Origin: an uncultured Polaribacter sp.
GTDB taxonomy: Bacteria > Bacteroidota > Bacteroidia > Flavobacteriales > Flavobacteriaceae
Direction: 5' to 3'
Length of the DNA stretch: 64,000 nt
NCBI GenBank assembly: GCA_965233795.1
Contig: OZ247578.1
Location: 313,878-377,877, forward strand
Position numbers and translations under genes: made by a program. The notes under the pieces were generated by a model. It did not search any database. It saw nothing but the letters and a program-made list of their open reading frames with translations, and was not told the DNA's origin. Position 1 is the first letter of the stretch; each line of letters opens with the position of its first letter. Shown here one piece after another: positions 2,805-30,016 of this stretch.

Positions 2805-3557
2805 ATGATGTTAAAAATAGAAAATTTACACGCCAATATTGAAGATAAAGACATCCTAAAAGGCTTGAATTTACAAATTAATGCAGGAGAAGTACACGCA
2901 ATTATGGGACCTAATGGTGCAGGAAAGAGTACGCTAGCCAATATTGTTGCAGGAAAGGAAGAGTACGAAGTTACCGAAGGAACTATTGAATTAGAAGGTG
3001 AAGATATTAGCGAGTTAGCTCCAGAAGAAAGGGCGCACAATGGTGTTTTTATGTCTTTTCAATATCCTGTAGAAATCCCAGGAGTTACGGTAACTAATTT
3101 TATCAAAACTGCGATTAACGAATCTAGAAAAGCACAAGGTTTAGAAGAAATGCCTGCCAAGGAAATGTTGCAAAAAATTCGTGAAAAATCGGAGTTGTTA
3201 GAAATCGATAGAAAGTTCTTATCACGTTCGTTGAACGAAGGCTTTTCTGGAGGTGAGAAAAAACGAAACGAAATCTTTCAAATGGCAATGTTAGATCCAA
3301 AACTAGCAATCTTAGATGAAACCGATTCTGGATTAGATATTGATGCCTTGCGTATTGTTGCTAATGGTGTAAACAAACTAAAATCGAAAGACAATGCCGT
3401 TGTTGTAATTACACATTACCAGCGTTTGCTAGATTATATTGTTCCAGATTTTGTACATGTATTGTACGATGGAAAAATTGTAAAAACAGGAGATGCATCA
3501 CTAGCTTTAGAATTGGAAGCAAAAGGGTACGATTGGATAAAGCAGGAACTCGTTTAG
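2805..3557 (+). CDS. sufC: Fe-S cluster assembly ATPase SufC
   Basis: 250 aa. Walker A GPNGAGKST, ABC signature FSGGEKKR, Walker B LAILDETDSGLD. Confidence 0.97.
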   Translation: MMLKIENLHANIEDKDILKGLNLQINAGEVHAIMGPNGAGKSTLANIVAGKEEYEVTEGTIELEGEDISELAPEERAHNGVFMSFQYPVEIPGVTVTNFIKTAINESRKAQGLEEMPAKEMLQKIREKSELLEIDRKFLSRSLNEGFSGGEKKRNEIFQMAMLDPKLAILDETDSGLDIDALRIVANGVNKLKSKDNAVVVITHYQRLLDYIVPDFVHVLYDGKIVKTGDASLALELEAKGYDWIKQELV

Positions 3558-3593: not shown

Positions 3594-3640
3594 GTCATTC
3601 TTGTTGCCTGTGCTGAACTTGATTCAGTAATACAGGAATC
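3594..3640. repeat. Composite hairpin element: A-type arms (GTCATTC...CCTGT / ACAGGAATC) with a B-type core (GCTGAACTTGATTCAG) in the loop
   Basis: The sequence GTCATTCTTGTTGCCTGTGCTGAACTTGATTCAGTAATACAGGAATC was read directly. Confidence 0.7.
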
Positions 3641-3670
3641 TAAATAATAAGCAAAAAGTAAAAATAATGA

Positions 3671-3695
3671 GATTCCTGCCTTCGCAGGAATGACA
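3671..3695. repeat. Family A hairpin repeat GATTCCTGCCTTCGCAGGAATGACA
   Basis: 8-bp stem ATTCCTGC/GCAGGAAT with loop CTTC. The ATGACA flank (reverse complement of TGTCAT) is at the right end. Confidence 0.88.
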
Positions 3696-3706: not shown

Positions 3707-5020
3707 ATGGAATTAAAAGAAAAACTCGTATCGTCGTATTTGGCGTTTGAAAACAAGGTAAATATTCATTCAGATATTCACGAAATCCGCTCAAAAGCCT
3801 TACAAAATTTTGAAGCTTTAGGATTTCCTACCAAGCAATTAGAGGCATGGAAATATACTTCGTTAAATGCTTTGTTAAAGAATGATTACAGCATTTTCCC
3901 AGATAAGGAAGTTGCAGTAGTTCTTGCCGATGTTAAAAAATATTTTATTCACGATATCGACTCTTATAAAATTGTTTTTATAGATGGGAAATACAGTTCA
4001 TTTTTATCGGAAACTACTCACGACAAGTTTGATGTGTGTTTGATGTCTTCTGCCTTAGAAAAAAGAAAATACAAACCTATTATTGAAAATTACTTTAATA
4101 AAATTGCCAAGCAAGACCATTTAACCTCTTTAAATACAGCTTTTGTAAATGAAGGAGCTTATATCTATATTCCTAGAAATGTAGAGGTAGAAAAACCCAT
4201 TCAAATCATCAATTTTACCACAGGTTCAGAAGCAGCAACCTTGGTACAACCTAGAAATTTAATTGTTGCTGAGCAGAATGCACATGTGCAGATTATTGAA
4301 CGTCATCAAAGTTTGACATCTCACCCTACATTATCCAATGTGGTTACCGAAATTTTTGCCGCAAAAGATGCTACAGTCGATTTTTATAAGATTCAGAATG
4401 ATGCGGTTACGGCTTCTTTGGTAGACAACACCTATGTAGAGCAAAAGTCGAACAGTGTCGTTTCTGTACATACATTCTCATTTGGCGGAAATATCACTAG
4501 AAATAATTTAAATTTTTACCAACGAGGCGAGCATATCGACTCTATTTTAAAAGGAATTACCATTCTTGAAGGCAAGCAACACGTAGACCATCATACCTTG
4601 GTACATCATATAGAACCCAATTGCGAAAGTCACCAAGATTATAAAGGCATCTATGACGAGCGTGCGACCGGTGTTTTTAACGGGAAAGTAATCGTTGAAA
4701 AAGAAGCACAAAAAACCAATGCCTATCAGCAAAATAACAACGTATTGGTAAGCGATAAAGCTACGATGAATGCCAAACCTCAATTAGAGATTTTTGCAGA
4801 CGATGTAAAATGTTCACACGGTTGTACGATTGGACAATTGGACGAGAATGCGTTGTTTTATATGCAACAACGTGGAATTCCACAAAAAGAAGCGAAGGCT
4901 TTGCTCATGTATGCTTTTGCCAATACGGTGTTAGAAAGTGTAAAAATACCCGAGGTAAAAAACAGAATTACCAAACTCATTGCCAATAAACTAAAGGTAA
5001 ATATTGGGTTTGATTTGTAG
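3707..5020 (+). CDS. sufD: Fe-S cluster assembly protein SufD
   Basis: 437 aa. The C-terminal SufB/SufD beta-helix region is recognisable (KPQLEIFADDVKCSHGCTIGQLDENALFYMQQRGI), and the gene follows sufC. Confidence 0.93.
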   Translation: MELKEKLVSSYLAFENKVNIHSDIHEIRSKALQNFEALGFPTKQLEAWKYTSLNALLKNDYSIFPDKEVAVVLADVKKYFIHDIDSYKIVFIDGKYSSFLSETTHDKFDVCLMSSALEKRKYKPIIENYFNKIAKQDHLTSLNTAFVNEGAYIYIPRNVEVEKPIQIINFTTGSEAATLVQPRNLIVAEQNAHVQIIERHQSLTSHPTLSNVVTEIFAAKDATVDFYKIQNDAVTASLVDNTYVEQKSNSVVSVHTFSFGGNITRNNLNFYQRGEHIDSILKGITILEGKQHVDHHTLVHHIEPNCESHQDYKGIYDERATGVFNGKVIVEKEAQKTNAYQQNNNVLVSDKATMNAKPQLEIFADDVKCSHGCTIGQLDENALFYMQQRGIPQKEAKALLMYAFANTVLESVKIPEVKNRITKLIANKLKVNIGFDL

Positions 5021-8611: not shown

Positions 8612-8632
8612 TGTTTGTGTTTGGGTTAGAGA

Positions 8633-8657
8633 GATCCTGAAACAAGTTCAGGATGAC
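8633..8657. repeat. Family B hairpin repeat GATCCTGAAACAAGTTCAGGATGAC
   Basis: Stem ATCCTGAA/TTCAGGAT. The GTCAT flank is at the right end (reverse orientation). Lies between the SDR gene and bioB. Confidence 0.88.
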
Positions 8658-8665
8658 GTTGGTTT

Positions 8666-10960: not shown

Positions 10961-12139
10961 TTATTTTTCAATGAGTATTGATACCGCATTTCCACCAAAA
11001 CCAACAGCATTTACCAATATTTTTTTAAGTTCTTTGGGTGGTGATTGTTTTTCCGCAAAAGGAACTGGAATTACTTCTTGGTATTTTAGCATGAGTAAGG
11101 CTAATTCTAAACTTAACATTCCTGAAGTACCAAACGTATGTCCTAATTTCCATTTGTTAGTAGTTAAAAAAGGAATTTTGTTAAAAAACACTTTTTGAAT
11201 GGCATTATATTCCGAAAAATCTCCTTTTAACGTACCTGGTGCGTGCATCACAATAGCATCAATTTCATCAGGAGAAGTGAATCCCAAAGCCATTTTCATG
11301 GATCTTTGAAAACATTGAGCTTCGGTAGAAATGGAAGTATGATGTTCTAAAATTTCTGTTGCATAACCTATTCCTGTAATAAGCGCTAATCTGTTTTGTT
11401 GTATGCCTTTTTCTAAACAGCTTACTGCAGCACCTTCACCAAGAACCATGGTGTTTTTTTTCTTTTTGAAATCGAGTGCGCGACAAGGGTACGATACTTC
11501 ATCGCATTCATGGGATACTTCATTGCATTCAGTATAAACTTTTAGGGCTTGCATTTGTGCGATGGTAAAATCAGTTAAAGGCGCTTCACTTCCGCCAACT
11601 AAAAATTTATCGGAGAGTCCTGCTTGTATCCAAGCAATACCATTTAAAACAGCATGTAAGGCGGTAGAGCAGGTGATAGAATGCGAAATTTCTGGACCTT
11701 TTGTTTGTAAATCATGCGCAACCCAAGAAGAAATATTTCCCAAAGTAGTAGTTGGTGAACTTAAAATAGCGGTTTTTTGAGTTTTTAAAAAAGCAGTGTG
11801 GTGCTTTTCAAAAAGAGCTGTAGCGCCTCTTGAAGATCCTATGTTAATTCCAAAATCGTCACCTACTTTCCAACCCGCTTTTAAACAAGCCTTTCTAGCT
11901 ACTAAAATTGCATATAAAACGGTGTTGTCTAAGTTTTTGTATTTTAAAGATGCTGTTTTTAAAGCAACGATTTCTTTTTGATCTTCTTCGGATATTTTTG
12001 CTACCCAAGCAGTAAAATTTTCAAATGCTGTTTTAGAAATAGAATGTTGCTTGCTTTTATATCTTTTCCAAATAGAGGTTTCATTATTTCCTAAAGCGGA
12101 AATAGAAGATATGGCGGTAATGGAAATAGGTTGAAACAA
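10961..12139 (-). CDS. Beta-ketoacyl synthase (KAS I/II-like, Cys-His-His triad) embedded in the biotin cluster
   Basis: 392 aa. Active-site Cys SITCSTALHAV, His in VMHAPGT, Lys/His in NKWKLGHTFGTSG, C-terminal GFGGNA. Confidence 0.85.
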   Translation of the reverse strand: MFQPISITAISSISALGNNETSIWKRYKSKQHSISKTAFENFTAWVAKISEEDQKEIVALKTASLKYKNLDNTVLYAILVARKACLKAGWKVGDDFGINIGSSRGATALFEKHHTAFLKTQKTAILSSPTTTLGNISSWVAHDLQTKGPEISHSITCSTALHAVLNGIAWIQAGLSDKFLVGGSEAPLTDFTIAQMQALKVYTECNEVSHECDEVSYPCRALDFKKKKNTMVLGEGAAVSCLEKGIQQNRLALITGIGYATEILEHHTSISTEAQCFQRSMKMALGFTSPDEIDAIVMHAPGTLKGDFSEYNAIQKVFFNKIPFLTTNKWKLGHTFGTSGMLSLELALLMLKYQEVIPVPFAEKQSPPKELKKILVNAVGFGGNAVSILIEK

Positions 12140-12198: not shown

Positions 12199-12225
12199 TT
12201 TGACAACTTTTCAAAAGTTGTCAAA
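12199..12225. repeat. Family D palindrome TTTGACAACTTTTCAAAAGTTGTCAAA (copy 1)
   Basis: Read directly. It overlaps the bioA stop codon (12221-12223). A second copy lies at 23533-23560. Confidence 0.88.
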
Positions 12226-13486
12226 CTTCTTCTAACACTTGCTCAATAGCGGTATACACTTTTTCCAATTGTTCAGGTGTAATTACATACGGAGCTTGAA
12301 TATAAATAGTATTTCCTAGCGGTCGTAAAAACACACCTTTATTCATAAAAAAATCGAACAATTGATCGCGTAAATTCCCATATCGTTCCATTTGGACATC
12401 CAAATCTAGGGCATAAATTATCCCTTTTTGCCGAGTAGATTTTACTTTGGGATGGTTTTGAATTCGTTTATCAAAGGCTTCATGCGAAGCTACAATCTGC
12501 TGTATGTTTTCTTGTATTTCTGATGAAGTCAACAATTCAATTCCTGCCAAAGCTGCCGTACATGCCAACGGGTTCGCAGAATAGGTATGTCCGTGAAACA
12601 AACCTTTTTTGATATCATCGCTATAAAAAGCATCATAAATTTCTTGAGAGCAACTTGTAATTGCCATGGGTAAAAGCCCTGCGGTTAGTGCCTTGCTTAA
12701 ACAAATAATATCAGGTTTTTCATGCATGTATTCTGAAGCAAAGTATTTTCCTGTCTTTCCAAATCCTGTCATTACCTCATCGGCAACTGTAATAATTTGA
12801 TGTTGTTTAAAAAAGGATAAAATACGATCTAAGCCTTCGACGTTGTGCATTTTCATAGCGGCTGCACCTTGTACCAAAGGCTCGTAGACAAATCCCGCTA
12901 TTTCATATATTTTTACAAGTATTTCTAGTTGTTGTAAAATTGCATCGTGGTTTTCTCCATTAGGAGTAGGAATTCGTTGTACGTCTAAGAAAAAATCTTC
13001 AAACGGACCGTTGTATACCGATAAGCCAGAAACACTCATCGCACCAAAAGTATCGCCATGAAAACCGTCTTCAAAAGCGACTAACGTGCTTCTTTTTTCA
13101 CCTTTATTAAAATGATATTGCAGCGCCATTTTAATTCCAATTTCCACAGCAGAAGAACCATTGTCTGAAAAGAAAATCTTTTGCTGATTTTCAGGTAAAA
13201 TTTCAATGAGTTTTTCTGATAATTCAATAGCAGGTTGGTGTGTAAACCCACTAAAAACTACCTGATCTAATTGTTGCATTTGGTTAGAAACTCTATTTGT
13301 GATGTACTCATTACAATGTCCGTACATAGCAGTATACCACGAAGCAATGGCATCAATATATTCATTGCCATTTTCATCTGTTAAAATACATCCTTTTGCT
13401 CTGATAATTGCCAGTGTTTCAGGATGTGTTTTATGTTGCGTTAGTGGATGCCAAAGGTGTTTTTTATCGCGTTCTTGTAGCATCAT
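12221..13486 (-). CDS. bioA: Adenosylmethionine-8-amino-7-oxononanoate aminotransferase BioA
   Basis: 421 aa. Class III aminotransferase with LWHPLTQ, ADEVMTGFGKTGK and LSKALTAG (PLP Lys). Confidence 0.95.
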   Translation of the reverse strand: MMLQERDKKHLWHPLTQHKTHPETLAIIRAKGCILTDENGNEYIDAIASWYTAMYGHCNEYITNRVSNQMQQLDQVVFSGFTHQPAIELSEKLIEILPENQQKIFFSDNGSSAVEIGIKMALQYHFNKGEKRSTLVAFEDGFHGDTFGAMSVSGLSVYNGPFEDFFLDVQRIPTPNGENHDAILQQLEILVKIYEIAGFVYEPLVQGAAAMKMHNVEGLDRILSFFKQHQIITVADEVMTGFGKTGKYFASEYMHEKPDIICLSKALTAGLLPMAITSCSQEIYDAFYSDDIKKGLFHGHTYSANPLACTAALAGIELLTSSEIQENIQQIVASHEAFDKRIQNHPKVKSTRQKGIIYALDLDVQMERYGNLRDQLFDFFMNKGVFLRPLGNTIYIQAPYVITPEQLEKVYTAIEQVLEEV

Positions 13487-14097
13487 ACTATTTGTTGAAA
13501 TTTTTCTGCATAATCTTTCACTACATTTTTATCAAAATAAGGTTCTTCATCTATACGTCCAAGAACAGGTACACCGGTCATTTTTTTGATGATTTCTTCT
13601 GTAGAAGGGTGCTCATTTCCACTAAAAATAAGCGCAACATCAAACCCTTTTTCTTGTAATAATTTTACGGTTAGTAGTGTGTGATTGATGCTCCCCAAAT
13701 AGTGACGAGATACTACAATTACGGTATAATCTGGAGGGATGATGTCTAAAATAGTATCCGTATCGTTTAAAGGAACTAAGAGTCCTCCAGCACCTTCAAC
13801 AACTAAATGATTGTTTGTTTTAGGAGGCGTGATTTTAGTCAATTCAATGTCAATATTATCAATTGCAGCAGCGGCATGCGGACTCATAGGTGTTTGCAAA
13901 GCATAACTATTTTTATGAAATACCGATTTGGAATTAGAAATCAATTTTTCAACTTTATAGGTATCAGAATTATCCAAATCGCCTGCTTGTATAGGTTTCC
14001 AATAATCGGCTTCTAAAGCTTCTACTAAAATAGCCGAAACAATGGTTTTTCCTACTTCGGTAGAAATGCCAGTAATGAAGTATTTTTTAGAGTTCAT
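13483..14097 (-). CDS. bioD: Dethiobiotin synthase BioD
   Basis: 204 aa. P-loop-like GISTEVGKT and VVEGAGGLLVP. Overlaps the bioA start by 4 nt (ATGA). Confidence 0.93.
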   Translation of the reverse strand: MNSKKYFITGISTEVGKTIVSAILVEALEADYWKPIQAGDLDNSDTYKVEKLISNSKSVFHKNSYALQTPMSPHAAAAIDNIDIELTKITPPKTNNHLVVEGAGGLLVPLNDTDTILDIIPPDYTVIVVSRHYLGSINHTLLTVKLLQEKGFDVALIFSGNEHPSTEEIIKKMTGVPVLGRIDEEPYFDKNVVKDYAEKFQQIV

Positions 14098-14111
14098 ATT
14101 TTCGTTCTATC

Positions 14112-14136
14112 GTCATGCTGAACTTGTTTCAGCATC
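14112..14136. repeat. Family B hairpin repeat GTCATGCTGAACTTGTTTCAGCATC
   Basis: Stem ATGCTGAA/TTCAGCAT, with the GTCAT flank at the left end. Lies between bioD and the GIY-YIG gene. Confidence 0.9.
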
Positions 14137-14150
14137 GCATCTTAATATTA

Positions 14151-14429
14151 TTAGTAATCTAAGGTTTTTAATCTAGGGTTTAATTTCTTAATTAAATTCA
14201 ATTTCCATTCTTTGTGCCAATTTTTTAATTGTTTTTCTCTTGCAATTGCTAGATTAATATCTAAAAATTCTTCAAAATAGATCAAATCTTTTACATTATA
14301 TTTTTTGGTAAATAAAGAAGCAGTTTCTTCATAATGCTCATATAATCTTTTTTCTAAATTGGCTGTCACTCCAATATAAAAGGTTGTTCTATATTTATTT
14401 GTCAATATATAGATATAGCTCTTTTTCAT
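14151..14429 (-). CDS. GIY-YIG nuclease family protein (small stand-alone URI domain)
   Basis: 92 aa. YIYILTN...TFYIGVTANLEKRLYEH...AREKQLKNW matches the GIY-YIG / R / E / N motif order. Confidence 0.9.
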   Translation of the reverse strand: MKKSYIYILTNKYRTTFYIGVTANLEKRLYEHYEETASLFTKKYNVKDLIYFEEFLDINLAIAREKQLKNWHKEWKLNLIKKLNPRLKTLDY

Positions 14430-14442
14430 TCCTTAGCGTTAT

Positions 14443-14470
14443 GTGACCCTGAAACAAGTTCAGGGTGACG
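14443..14470. repeat. Family B hairpin repeat GTGACCCTGAAACAAGTTCAGGGTGACG, inverted relative to 14112-14136
   Basis: Stem ACCCTGAA/TTCAGGGT, with the GTCAC flank at the right end. Lies between the GIY-YIG gene and bioF. Confidence 0.9.
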
Positions 14471-14479
14471 ATTTTAAAT

Positions 14480-15628
14480 TTATTGATCTTTCACAAAAGT
14501 ACACAACAACTCCAAAACAAGTGTAATTTCTTCCTTAGAATTGTAATTGTGTAAACAAAAGCGCAACCGTTCTTCACCTTTAGAAACGGTAGGAGATAGA
14601 ATAGGTTTTATTTCGAATCCTTTTTCTTGTAAGGTTTTAGCAATCTGATGTATATTTTTCTCATTGGGAATAATACAACAATGAATTGCAGAGGTGCTTT
14701 TTATAAAAAAAGAAGCTAACTTCAATCGGTTTATTTCTTCATTAAAAAAGGCAATGTTCTCTTGCAATTGTTTTTGATTAGAAGTATTTTCGAGCGTTTT
14801 ATACCCCATTTTTATCGTAGCTAAAGCGTGTGGAGGAAGTGCTGTTGTGTAGATAAAACTTCTAGAAAAATTGACTAAATAATTTTTTAGATTTTTACTC
14901 CCTAAAATAGCAGCACCATGGCATCCTAATGCTTTCCCGAAAGTTACAATTCTTGCAAAAACACTATTTTCTATACCTAATGTTTGTATTTTTCCACAGC
15001 CTTGTTTTCCAAAAACACCTAAGGAATGCGCTTCGTCTACCACAAAATGTGCTCGGTATTTTTCACAAAGTTTTGCCATAGCAAGTATATCGGGCGTATC
15101 TCCATCCATAGAAAATACGGCTTCTGTAACTACATAGATTTCATTTTTGTCATGCTGAACTCGTTTCAGCATCTCATTCAAATTGTTTACATCATTGTGC
15201 TGAAATTTATACCCTTTTGCTTTGCATAACTGAATGCCGTCTCTAATAGAAGCGTGGATAAATTCGTCATACAAAACAATATCTCCACGTTGTGGAATGG
15301 CTCCAAAAAAACCCAAATTGGCATTGTACCCTGAGTTAAAAATTAGAGCGGCTTCGGATTGATGAAATGTACAAATGTCTTTTTCAACTTCCTCGTACAA
15401 ATCAGAATTTCCAGAAAGCAATCGAGATCCTGTTGCCCCATTCGCAATAAGATGGTTGTTTTTTAGGAATTGATGTACTTTCTCAAAAATTGCAGTAGAT
15501 TTTGCAAAACCCAAATAATCATTCGAAGAAAAGTCGATAGTATTTAAAGGCTTTTGTAAAGAACGAAAAGCATGGTCAACTTTTCGTTTTTCTAATTTTT
15601 CTAAGAGTTTTTTTGGAAAGTGCTCCAT
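14480..15628 (-). CDS. bioF: 8-amino-7-oxononanoate synthase BioF
   Basis: 382 aa. VTEAVFSMDGD, VDEAHSLG, TFGKALG (PLP Lys). Confidence 0.93.
   Translation of the reverse strand: MEHFPKKLLEKLEKRKVDHAFRSLQKPLNTIDFSSNDYLGFAKSTAIFEKVHQFLKNNHLIANGATGSRLLSGNSDLYEEVEKDICTFHQSEAALIFNSGYNANLGFFGAIPQRGDIVLYDEFIHASIRDGIQLCKAKGYKFQHNDVNNLNEMLKRVQHDKNEIYVVTEAVFSMDGDTPDILAMAKLCEKYRAHFVVDEAHSLGVFGKQGCGKIQTLGIENSVFARIVTFGKALGCHGAAILGSKNLKNYLVNFSRSFIYTTALPPHALATIKMGYKTLENTSNQKQLQENIAFFNEEINRLKLASFFIKSTSAIHCCIIPNEKNIHQIAKTLQEKGFEIKPILSPTVSKGEERLRFCLHNYNSKEEITLVLELLCTFVKDQ
15149..15173. repeat. Family B hairpin repeat GTCATGCTGAACTCGTTTCAGCATC located inside the bioF coding sequence
   Basis: Read directly. 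On the minus strand it is translated in frame as MLKRVQHD within ...NNLNEMLKRVQHDKNEIYVVTE... Confidence 0.88.
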
Positions 15629-18268: not shown

Positions 18269-18281
18269 GGTAACTTGTACA

Positions 18282-18305
18282 ATTCCTGCCTTCGCAGGAA
18301 TGACA
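18282..18305. repeat. Family A hairpin repeat ATTCCTGCCTTCGCAGGAATGACA
   Basis: Identical to the core of 3671-3695. Confidence 0.88.
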
Positions 18306-18368
18306 GCGGTTTTTTAAAAATTATTATTTAAAATGGTGAAAATCAAATTTTTATACATATAACATGCA

Positions 18369-18728
18369 TTAAAAATGCAAAAAAGCATCTTCTAAATGTT
18401 CTATTTTAAACTCATTTTCTTCTTTTAAAATAGCAATAATATCAAATCGAACCTCTACCTCTAAATCTTTTGAAGTAACATACGCATCAATAGCACTTAC
18501 TAATAATTTTATTTTTTTAGGATTTACAAAATCTTGTGGATTTCCAAACACATCAGAAGATCTCGTTTTTACTTCTACAACAGCTAAGGTGTTTTCTTGT
18601 TGTGCAATAATATCTACTTCTGCTTTTAAATAACGATAGTTTTTTTCTAGAATTTTATAGCCTTTTTCTAGTAAGTAATCTACCGCTAATTGTTCTCCTT
18701 TTTTACCAAGTTCGTTATGTATAGCCAT
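18369..18728 (-). CDS. YraN-family (UPF0102) endonuclease-like protein
   Basis: 119 aa. GEQLAVDYLLEKGYKILEKNYR...EVDIIA...VVEVKTR...RFDIIAI is the typical YraN pattern. Confidence 0.88.
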   Translation of the reverse strand: MAIHNELGKKGEQLAVDYLLEKGYKILEKNYRYLKAEVDIIAQQENTLAVVEVKTRSSDVFGNPQDFVNPKKIKLLVSAIDAYVTSKDLEVEVRFDIIAILKEENEFKIEHLEDAFLHF

Positions 18729-18824: not shown

Positions 18825-18848
18825 TGTCATTCCTGCGAAAGCAGGAAT
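18825..18848. repeat. Family A hairpin repeat GTCATTCCTGCGAAAGCAGGAATC
   Basis: Exact reverse complement of 18869-18892. Confidence 0.92.
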
Positions 18849-18868
18849 CTAAGTGTTTCAATTTTAAT

Positions 18869-18893
18869 AGATTCCTGCTTTCGCAGGAATGAC
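18869..18893. repeat. Family A hairpin repeat GATTCCTGCTTTCGCAGGAATGACA
   Basis: Together with 18825-18848 it forms a perfect 24-nt inverted pair around a 20-nt spacer. Confidence 0.92.
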
Positions 18894-28965: not shown

Positions 28966-29991
28966 ATCTGCGTTGAGTGCTGTTTTTTCTGCTTTCAATC
29001 CCTTGTAATTTTCAATTTCTTCTAATTTTTTTAAGGTAAAATCTTTTAAGTTCGTAAAAGGAGCTAATTGTCTTTTTTTGAGATGTTTTGCTAAATATTC
29101 TTGTTCTGTTTGATATTTTGTAGGAATAAAAAACACTTTTTTGTGCAATACAGCTACATCCATTATAGAGGAATATCCCGATCTACAAAGAACTATTTTT
29201 GAGGCATTGATGCGTTTTTCTAATTCTTTAGAAAGTAAAAAATTATAGATACAAATATTGTTTTTAAACGTTTTCTTTTGTCCGTCTTCTATTTTTCCTT
29301 GTACTAAAACAATATTTTGCGAGGTGTTTTTAAAGGTTTCTACAAGGCGATTTTCGAGTTGTGTTCGATTGGGTTCTGGACCTGATAATATGATTAATAT
29401 ATCTGTAGTGATAGGGATATTTTCTTTTTTAAACCGACTTAAAACACCGATGTATTTCTTTTTAATATGCTTGTTTTTTGTCTGTGATAATTTTCCTGAA
29501 AATTCATTATTAGGTGTATCTGGAATCCAACATTCATCAAATTTTTTGATAATAGATTGGTGAACTTTACTTGTGAAAAAAGTAGTAAAGCCTGAAAGTA
29601 CTTGTAATTGATGTGTAATGTAAACAGAAGTTACTTTTGTGCTTCGAACTCCAAAACGGTTATCGGAAATAATACCTACAATATTCTTTTCTTTTTTAAG
29701 AAAATTTGCAATTGTTTTTCTTTCTTTTTTTACTGCCGAAAAAAATTTGGGAAGTTGTAAAAACAATCGCCATTTTAAATGTTTTCCGTAAGAAATTGAG
29801 TAGGAGGGCAGTTCTAAAAAAGTTAATTCAGGAAACTCCTTTTGAAGAAAAACCAAGGCTTTTCCATCAGAAGCAATAATAGGTGTGAAATTGTTTTTTA
29901 TAAGTAAATGAACGATAGGAATACAACGAGAAGCATGTCCTAATCCCCAATTTAAAGGCGCAACAATTACTTTTTTTTCCATTATTGTCAT
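28939..29991 (-). CDS. GT-B fold glycosyltransferase (MurG/UDP-glycosyltransferase-like)
   Basis: 350 aa. N-terminal APLNWGLGHASRCIP is typical of GT28/GT1-like enzymes. The first ATG lies inside repeat 29987-30009, so the true start is probably the ATG at 29982 (MEKKVIV). Confidence 0.72.
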   Translation of the reverse strand: MTIMEKKVIVAPLNWGLGHASRCIPIVHLLIKNNFTPIIASDGKALVFLQKEFPELTFLELPSYSISYGKHLKWRLFLQLPKFFSAVKKERKTIANFLKKEKNIVGIISDNRFGVRSTKVTSVYITHQLQVLSGFTTFFTSKVHQSIIKKFDECWIPDTPNNEFSGKLSQTKNKHIKKKYIGVLSRFKKENIPITTDILIILSGPEPNRTQLENRLVETFKNTSQNIVLVQGKIEDGQKKTFKNNICIYNFLLSKELEKRINASKIVLCRSGYSSIMDVAVLHKKVFFIPTKYQTEQEYLAKHLKKRQLAPFTNLKDFTLKKLEEIENYKGLKAEKTALNADLFRLFHRK

Positions 29992-30009
29992 TCCTGTGAA
30001 ACAGGAATC
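29987..30009. repeat. Family A hairpin repeat GTCATTCCTGTGAAACAGGAATC
   Basis: Stem ATTCCTGT/ACAGGAAT, a compensated C>T / G>A change relative to the other A copies. Confidence 0.88.
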
Positions 30010-30016
30010 TCATCAT

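Follow-up and report, generated by a model that had tools for sequence, protein, structure and literature searches.

A probable Ssn-type nuclease cassette between inverted CGTC-tagged hairpins at the bioF-bioD junction of an uncultured Polaribacter sp.

The stretch of DNA analysed here (the window) comprises 64 kb of contig OZ247578.1 from an uncultured Polaribacter sp., is AT-rich with 31% G+C and carries a biotin operon on its minus strand, including bioF (14480-15628), bioD (13483-14097), bioA (12221-13486) and a KAS-like gene (10961-12139). Between bioF and bioD, on the same strand, lies an open reading frame (ORF) of 92 amino acids (14151-14429, minus strand) encoding a single-domain GIY-YIG nuclease with homology to SsnA of Neisseria, and on each side of it a hairpin-forming repeat is located. 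With a probability of roughly 85% this unit is an Ssn-type cassette, that is, a 92-aa GIY-YIG nuclease gene (from here on referred to as ssn-like) placed between two inverted copies of its own recognition hairpin.

The 5' hairpin module (14441-14470) is read on the minus strand as CGTCACCCTGAACTTGTTTCAGGGTCACAT and consists of a CGTC tag, the stem ACCCTGAA, the loop CTTGT, the return stem TTCAGGGT and a CACAT tail. The 3' module (14111-14140, plus strand, CGTCATGCTGAACTTGTTTCAGCATCGCAT) is inverted relative to it and is composed of the CGTC tag, the stem ATGCTGAA, the loop CTTGT, the return stem TTCAGCAT and a CGCAT tail. Both modules are 30 nt long with their CGTC tags outermost, giving a unit of 360 bp, and both belong to a hairpin class with a 5-nt loop and a CTGAA stem. 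The inverted repeat itself extends over 14109-14140 and 14441-14472 (32 nt, 84% complementary), and folding of each arm as single-stranded DNA (ssDNA) gave an 8-bp stem with a 5-nt loop (-7.1 kcal/mol, z about -4). When two mismatches are allowed, the 15-nt core common to the arms occurs five times in the window against 0.26 expected, and none of 100 shuffled sequences reached five. The gene, its strand and position, and the two inverted hairpins with outermost tags had been proposed earlier from the letters of the DNA (the sequence-only reading) and are all borne out, the gene by the ORF and its Pfam match and the hairpins by the inverted repeat, the folding and the shuffled controls, while the length of the repeat-cargo-repeat unit, given there as 359 bp, is one base pair longer.

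The 92-aa protein matches the Pfam family GIY-YIG (PF01541, E=2.2e-15) over residues 3-78, and its predicted structure forms one compact GIY-YIG domain (AlphaFold pLDDT 92), the closest solved folds being UPF0213, Slx1 and UvrC-N. Neither the Pfam search nor the model revealed a second domain, including any DNA-binding domain, and searches of NCBIfam and PADLOC gave only sub-threshold or weak homing-endonuclease-like matches at the N-terminus, among them TIGR01453 (27.9 bits, below the cut-off of 56 bits, and confined to residues 3-39). Among 35 homologues the catalytic tyrosine Y18 and the metal-binding glutamate E65 do not vary and the other tyrosine, Y7, is retained in at least 90%, and dN/dS values of 0.04-0.18 for ssn-like genes indicate strong purifying selection; the gene in the window is intact and under purifying selection. 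It represents a very abundant flavobacterial small gene, with 2651 relatives of the protein found at E<=1e-5.

The founder of the Ssn family is SsnA of Neisseria meningitidis, a GIY-YIG protein (cd10448) of one domain and 94 aa. Its substrate is the hairpin repeat NTS (CGTCATTCCCGCGMAVGCGGGAATCYRG), which it binds exclusively in single-stranded form, with cleavage a few nucleotides upstream and no activity on double-stranded DNA (dsDNA) or RNA (Chenal et al., Nat Commun 2025, PMC11893778). In the same study cleavage was found to need the three bases before the palindrome and binding the C after it, the residues mutated were Y6, Y17 and E64, and the Neisseria system was found to lower transformation by NTS-bearing DNA. 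Ssn homologues were reported to have an Ssn-related motif (SRM) nearby in 71% and on both sides in 42% of the cases, the published requirement for family membership being an E below 1e-10 and a query coverage of 75% or more in blastp to Neisseria SsnA (PMC11893778).

The identity of the window protein was assessed against the 94-aa ortholog of N. gonorrhoeae and not against the N. meningitidis reference CAX49033.1. A tblastn search of PLSDB (7.3 Gb) with the window protein led to this ortholog at E=2e-14 and 86-89% query coverage, and the N. gonorrhoeae ORF has Y6, Y17 and E64 as published for SsnA (PMC11893778) and NTS copies around it. The locus derives from two 2.17-Mb N. gonorrhoeae replicons (NZ_CP119140.1 and NZ_CP119142.1) that are labelled as plasmids in the database and are evidently chromosomes. 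In the pairwise alignment the proteins are 41% identical over 88 of the 92 residues (E=8e-24), values within the published definition of the family, and the 92-aa single-domain protein likewise falls within the ~90-100 aa of its members. Residues Y7, Y18 and E65 align with Y6, Y17 and E64 of SsnA. Six metagenomic proteins with hairpins matching the published SRM string on both sides likewise resemble the window protein (43-48% identity, E about 1e-23 to 1e-26). As for the DNA, both arms in the window show a CGTC tag, an 8-bp stem, a 5-nt loop, the return stem and then a C, so that the features critical for SsnA are present. A nuclease acting on the hairpins themselves, one of the possibilities raised in the sequence-only reading, would by analogy fit the biochemistry of SsnA (PMC11893778), of which the window protein is a clear homologue.

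A scan with one genome per species gave 79 loci, nearly all from Flavobacteriaceae and with proteins 60-88% identical to that of the window, and these loci together with the window contain 87 homologous genes. Using a strict hairpin detector (GTCA and then a stem of 7 bp in which one mismatch was tolerated), outward-facing hairpins were found on both sides of 56 of the 87 genes and on both sides of none of 552 long control ORFs in the same loci. The forward 5' hairpin was detected for 64/87 homologues, mostly 31-40 nt before the ATG, and the reverse 3' hairpin for 66/87, just past the stop codon or overlapping it, against 23 and 10 control ORFs, respectively; the homologues missed by the detector mostly have nested or degenerate copies. 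The layout of hairpin, gene and hairpin is conserved across dozens of genera, and the earlier suggestion of a hairpin-pair element able to carry a nuclease gene is thereby supported by an association that is systematic.

Sequence logos of the arms (64 and 65 sequences) revealed an abrupt onset of conservation at C-GTCA, with 1.4-1.8 bits for the C preceding GTCA, running to TCnCAT, and the most conserved positions are the GTC preceding the palindrome and the C following it, the same features that are critical in SsnA mutagenesis. Outside CGTC...GACG the logos contain no conserved or duplicated bases and hence no visible target-site duplication, and since conservation stops sharply outside the arms, the unit ends at CGTC...GACG. 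When neighbouring hairpin pairs were counted in 677 kb, 114 were head-to-head, 64 tail-to-tail and 39 tandem, and the spacers of the head-to-head pairs fall into two groups, one of 21-80 nt corresponding to gene-less dimers (46 cases) and one of about 293-319 nt corresponding to the gene cassette.

In about 45 loci the gene is located inside the bio operon, in the slots bioF|bioD, bioD|bioA or bioA|KAS or beside a small Zn-ribbon-like ORF, and some genomes hold two copies of the cassette. A sister clade is found in the trp operon, mostly at trpB|trpA and also at D|C, C|F and F|B, and a few cassettes apparently lie in the his operon, an assignment made by reading the ORF sequences. The gene is co-oriented with both of its neighbours in 74 of 87 cases. 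In the protein tree, members of the bio clade invariably carry the CCC stem in the 5' arm and the TGC stem in the 3' arm, and in the trp clade the two are swapped. Copies from the same genome usually cluster in the tree, which indicates local duplication, and with dS values of 0.2-1.2 these duplications are not recent. In Kordia jejudonensis (L056, 4001-7150) the gene order is trpC|ssn|trpF|ssn|trpB|ssn|trpA, with a cassette at three consecutive trp junctions, the third of which is a 53%-identical paralogue with another hairpin class. Large bioF-bioD and bioA-KAS gaps of related loci were also considered as sites of other cargo and rejected, the content being an ordinary small Zn-ribbon-like ORF and an opposite-strand gene and not hairpin cassettes.

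In the window the cassette has the same orientation as the bio operon and no terminator-like site was found in 13900-14700, where T-runs are lacking; the cassette is therefore probably expressed by read-through transcription of the operon. The sequence TACTTTTG at 14494-14501 on the minus strand, within the last bioF codons and about 60 nt upstream of the ssn-like start, fits the Bacteroidetes -7 promoter consensus TAnnTTTG and is a candidate promoter element. It belongs to the host sequence and is also present in the cassette-free relative L083.

Nuclease clade and hairpin class co-vary. Loops of 5 nt were found in 128/128 arms around relatives of the window protein, while around relatives of the L056 paralogue 54/69 arms have 4-nt loops. 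The paralogue itself is flanked by 4-nt-loop hairpins, hairpins of this kind predominate beside its 79 metagenomic relatives, and compensatory stem variants (ATTCCTGC, ATTTCCGC, ATTCCCGC, ATACCTGC and ATGCCTGC) are found near these relatives. Within a genome, the left and right stem types of the gene-less dimers match those of the resident cassette, and the dimers form near-identical multicopy sets. Two tandem gene-less dimers adjoin the cassette of Tenacibaculum insulae (L027, 3664-3934); they retain its 5' hairpin, 5' untranslated region and initial 17 nt of the ORF (54 of 56 positions identical) as well as its 3' end (34/37), which identifies them as internal-deletion derivatives.

At least ten hairpin copies are present in the window, and its two gene-less units, called 'empty' in the sequence-only reading, do exist. 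The one at 18825-18893 is a head-to-head dimer of the 4-nt-loop class (TGTCATTCCTGCGAAAGCAGGAATCTA), folds as one long hairpin (-32 kcal/mol, z=-12.9) and has perfect arms of 27 nt around a 16-nt spacer in place of the 24 nt and 20 nt first given. The other, at 3594-3695 between the ORFs 2805-3557 and 3707-5020, has a composite left arm in which a 5-nt-loop core is nested within a 4-nt-loop hairpin. In this composite hairpin (3594-3650) the inner module (TGTGCTGAA..TTCAGTAT) sits in the loop of an outer CGTC hairpin, and similar composites recur as 5' arms in L006, L008, L019, L053 and L080; either the loop is a site tolerant of insertions or the composite is a long-form variant of the hairpin. 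Both gene-less dimers have 4-nt loops and a TTCCTGC stem and differ in this from the arms around the gene.

Solo modules were identified at 8630-8658 (minus strand, 5-nt-loop class, CGTCATCCTGAACTTGTTTCAGGATCTCT, by repeat search and folding) and, by repeat search, at 18277-18306 (minus strand, 4-nt-loop class) and 29986-30013 (plus strand, TGTCATTCCTGTGAAACAGGAATCTCAT). A further module (15148-15177, plus strand) lies in the coding sequence of bioF, where it is translated in frame as NEMLKRVQHDK; it is also present in the close relatives L082 and L083, and the same BioF loop holds recognisable or decayed versions of the hairpin in other genera, the insert in L005 being 22 aa longer. Comparable in-frame copies are found in the trpF ORFs of L052 and L056, with the hairpin-encoded peptide EMLNQVQHD following HIERSR from another palindrome. 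The tag is CGTC at 14111, 14470 (minus) and 8658 (minus) and TGTC at 15148, 18825, 18893 (minus) and 29986, and the first stem pair is A-T in all copies of the window, the second being T-A in the TGC and TTCC types and C-G in the CCC type. A UPF0102 (YraN-like nuclease) gene at 18369-18728 (minus strand) is situated between the solo hairpin 18277-18306 and the dimer 18825-18893, and because the nearest tags point inward it is a neighbour of these elements and not cargo. No Rfam family reached its gathering score in the window, and around the unit only chance snoRNA matches were seen.

Judged by their tag, stem and loop, the flanking hairpins fit the CGTC-tagged repetitive extragenic palindromes (REPs), with a tail that departs from the consensus, and would be equivalent to SRMs. 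CGTC-tagged REPs were described as having a CGTC or TGTC tag, a stem of 8-9 bp starting with A-T, a loop of 4-5 nt and the tail consensus CCA; they form head-to-head dimers, often heterodimers, occur in Bacteroidetes, are sometimes intragenic and were stated to 'lack a dedicated transposase', and the palindromic elements RPE-4 and RPE-6 were equated with CGTC families (Di Nocera, De Gregorio and Rocco, BMC Genomics 2013, PMC3733652).

Several observations weigh against assigning the unit to the Ssn family. The identity to SsnA is only 41% and activity in the clade of the window is deduced from homology, and the closest solved structures, UPF0213 and Slx1, belong to a different GIY-YIG branch. 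The hairpin tails are CGCAT, CACAT or CTCAT and not the CCA or CYRG of described families. The published SRM string, HGTCWYN(0-2)YYVSBRHN(0-5)WNVSBRGN(0-2)RNCYNB, gave no match in the window and one in 610 kb of flavobacterial loci; it matches the canonical NTS and is a hand-made pattern, not a biological definition, and its missing the window hairpins makes these a divergent class. The gene-less dimers of the window are of the 4-nt-loop class and are without a cognate nuclease gene there, no second ssn gene for such hairpins having been found within the window. Finally, the role in modulating natural transformation known from Neisseria may not hold here.

The bioF-bioD junction was compared in the closest genomes, identified via BioD. 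Between the near-conspecific genomes the segment 14089-14503 differs, which includes the cassette, short spacers, the last bioF codons and the first bioD codons; the blastn alignments of L082 and L083 to the window are interrupted there, with one breakpoint at about 14504 or 14487 and the opposite one at 14088. In L082, with flanks of 96-97% nucleotide identity to the window, the segment is replaced by a 100-nt gene-less dimer of the 4-nt-loop class that is 80% identical to the dimer at 18825-18893 of the window. L083 is equally close and has at the junction a 134-aa ORF (L083 1590-1994) without hairpins, so that the three genomes, all about 96-97% identical to each other in the flanks, have three different contents at the same junction. 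Junction content turns over on a strain time scale, and closely related strains differ by gain, loss or replacement of cassettes and gene-less dimers at operon junctions. The alignment of relatives proposed with the sequence-only reading accordingly revealed a polymorphic site at which the unit is missing from close relatives, and the clean empty site sought was not found among them, the closest genomes holding other inserts with breakpoints a few codons inside bioF and bioD. The change could equally be an insertion or replacement or a differential deletion.

A conserved ORF encoding about 125-135 aa, with CxxC pairs and without a match in Pfam, occupies the bioF-bioD junction of L083, L006, L009, L012 and others, in many genera, and is absent from the window. 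The 84%-identical L084 has the same small ORF as L083 and in addition a solo hairpin (L084 2285-2320) that overlaps the start of bioD, its GCATGAC supplying the ATG. It is common for the stop or start codons of adjacent genes to lie within hairpin tails (ATGAGA, CATGAC).

Two short metagenomic contigs, L001 and L002, carry the cassette of the window. When L001 was compared with the window, no differences were found over 14027-14517 and 23 in 1160 flanking nt (~2%); the identical tract, in which the cassette is accompanied by up to about 60 nt of flank at either end, is in this one comparison consistent with a recent recombination tract.

If the homology to SsnA extends to activity, the protein would bind the hairpin only in ssDNA, as exposed in replication, in repair or on uptake by transformation or conjugation, and would recognise the CGTC tag, the palindrome and the C that directly follows. 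A Mg2+-dependent nick would be expected a few nucleotides 5' of the tag, that is, just outside the unit, near 14108 on the plus strand and near 14473 on the minus strand. The nuclease would then either move the unit or, as a domesticated enzyme, keep the recombination of incoming single strands in check, as it does in Neisseria.

The first of these options extends the assignment to the Ssn family by an active mobile element, a GIY-YIG counterpart of the RAYT/REPIN 'REPtron' in which Ssn mobilises the cassette and dimers resembling miniature inverted-repeat transposable elements (MITEs) between operon junctions, and we consider it possible at somewhat below even odds. Mobility is suggested by the three contents of one junction in near-identical genomes, by the mismatch-free tract shared with L001 in more divergent flanks and by the variety of slots occupied (bio F|D, D|A and A|KAS; trp D|C, C|F, F|B and B|A). 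The copies of one genome are each other's closest relatives, the multicopy, near-identical dimers match the stem types of the resident cassette, those of L027 are internal-deletion derivatives, and conservation ends sharply at CGTC...GACG. On the other hand, GIY-YIG enzymes hydrolyse DNA and form no covalent intermediate, hence no strand-transfer chemistry is known for them, and inverted arms leave one cleavable site per strand and unit. Neither a target-site duplication in the logos nor a clean empty site in close relatives was seen, same-genome copies are old by their dS, orthologous positions kept across genera fit a long residence, and the differences between the window, L082 and L083 are equally explained by differential deletion through recombination between repeats.

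A free-standing homing endonuclease gene, making a double-strand break at a cassette-free junction whose repair copies the cassette in, is very unlikely. Presence and absence do vary at a conserved site between close relatives, the L001 tract with its flanks of up to ~60 nt resembles co-conversion, and weak matches to homing-endonuclease profiles were obtained, but the protein has only 92 aa and no DNA-binding domain, tested Ssn family members never cut dsDNA (PMC11893778), the alternative alleles hold other inserts and not an intact target, and because the same type of cassette sits at many unrelated junctions there is no single target site. The least probable explanation is that the hairpins act at the RNA level in the operon, be it in translational coupling or in processing or stabilising the mRNA, and the nuclease gene lies between them by chance, since, although the units lie at gene junctions, are probably transcribed with the operon and lack T-runs, although the tails carry ATG/TGA triplets (the hairpin of L084 even supplying the start codon of bioD) and although many REPs were considered to act as RNA (Di Nocera et al. 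2013, PMC3733652), both orientations of the arms are found on one transcript, neither the near-exclusive association with a single gene family nor the co-variation of clade and hairpin is explained, SsnA does not bind RNA (PMC11893778), no Rfam family matches and the wobble-type stem mismatches show no strand asymmetry (23 G:T in the sense strand versus 29 A:C, a weak test).

For the Ssn-type cassette, the kind of system (2025) and the repeats (2013) are already known. What appears to be new is the flavobacterial hairpin class missed by the published SRM string, the co-oriented niche at junctions within bio, trp and his operons, the constant combination of a left and a right arm of different type, with the two exchanged between clades, the comparative signs of turnover and deletion-derived dimers, and the explicit equation of SRMs with CGTC-tagged REPs, which is absent from the main text of PMC11893778. 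An abundant flavobacterial small gene and its hairpins are now placed in the Ssn family, and because an entire hairpin class escapes the published pattern, the association frequencies of 71% and 42% may be too low. The work on REPs (PMC3733652) and that on Ssn (PMC11893778) are thereby linked, two papers that apparently do not cite each other. The strain-level polymorphism, the end-matched dimers and the deletion derivatives bear on whether hairpin-ssn-hairpin units move, and we would tentatively put forward, at less than even odds, that Ssn cassettes remain mobile as selfish units and that the CGTC-tagged REP superfamily has in Ssn the dedicated enzyme it was long missing. If true, this would be a second, mechanistically independent counterpart of RAYT/REPIN, built on a hydrolytic GIY-YIG nuclease reading ssDNA hairpins, in which Ssn seeds gene-less dimers and colonises conserved biosynthetic operon junctions where host transcription expresses the cassette. 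In addition, any clade together with its partner hairpin may offer a new specificity for tools that cut ssDNA.

Set beside MITEs and insertion sequences (IS elements), the unit has inverted ends and deletion derivatives, with no conserved or duplicated bases outside CGTC...GACG in the logos and no recognised transposase fold. UPF0213 and bacterial Slx1-like proteins (PDB 1ywl, 1zg2) are minimal GIY-YIG domains of the same size and the closest solved folds, but the sequence match is marginal (E=0.027), the subfamily is another one and no flanking by repeats is known for them. Rickettsia palindromic elements (RPE-4, RPE-6) resemble the in-frame hairpins in bioF of the window and trpF of L052 and L056, though here intragenic copies are a side feature, most copies in the window being intergenic. 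Free-standing GIY-YIG homing endonucleases (phage T4 Seg, I-TevI relatives) have in common with the ssn-like gene the GIY-YIG core, the appearance of a small selfish gene between conserved genes and a patchy presence, whereas the window protein is without a DNA-binding domain, is accompanied by its own repeats and is found in many insertion contexts.

The anatomy of RAYT/REP (REPIN) and IS200/IS605 systems is alike in that a tetranucleotide tag followed by a hairpin is read as ssDNA, inverted copies surround a gene, gene-less dimers are abundant and enzyme and repeat co-evolve, and the NTS-ssnA-NTS arrangement was explicitly likened to IS elements and RAYT/REP (PMC11893778). Membership in either is ruled out, as the sole gene in the unit encodes a hydrolytic GIY-YIG nuclease and not an HUH/Y1 transposase, and the tag is CGTC and not GTAG. 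With CGTC-tagged REPs the window hairpins share the tag, the stem and loop lengths, the unpaired tail, the multicopy occurrence, the head-to-head dimers and heterodimers and the occasional in-frame copies, and they differ in that the tail is not CCA, that the CCC-type stem starts AC...GT and not AT and that a dedicated partner gene is present, as it is implicitly in PMC11893778.

The closest system is that of Ssn itself (PMC11893778). The differences are that the hairpin class of the window, with its CTGAA stem, CTTGT loop and CACAT tail, escapes the SRM string, that the layout of window-type cassettes is far more regular than the N. gonorrhoeae locus and their left and right arms differ in type, that the niche is biosynthetic operons whereas NTS in Neisseria clusters near membrane-protein genes, and that the hosts are Flavobacteriaceae, a family unmentioned in the main text of that paper. 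Common to both are a protein of about 94 aa that consists of one GIY-YIG domain and has the catalytic residues Y, Y and E, a gene placed between oriented hairpins with a CGTC tag and a C after the palindrome, and the hundreds of gene-less copies expected per genome.

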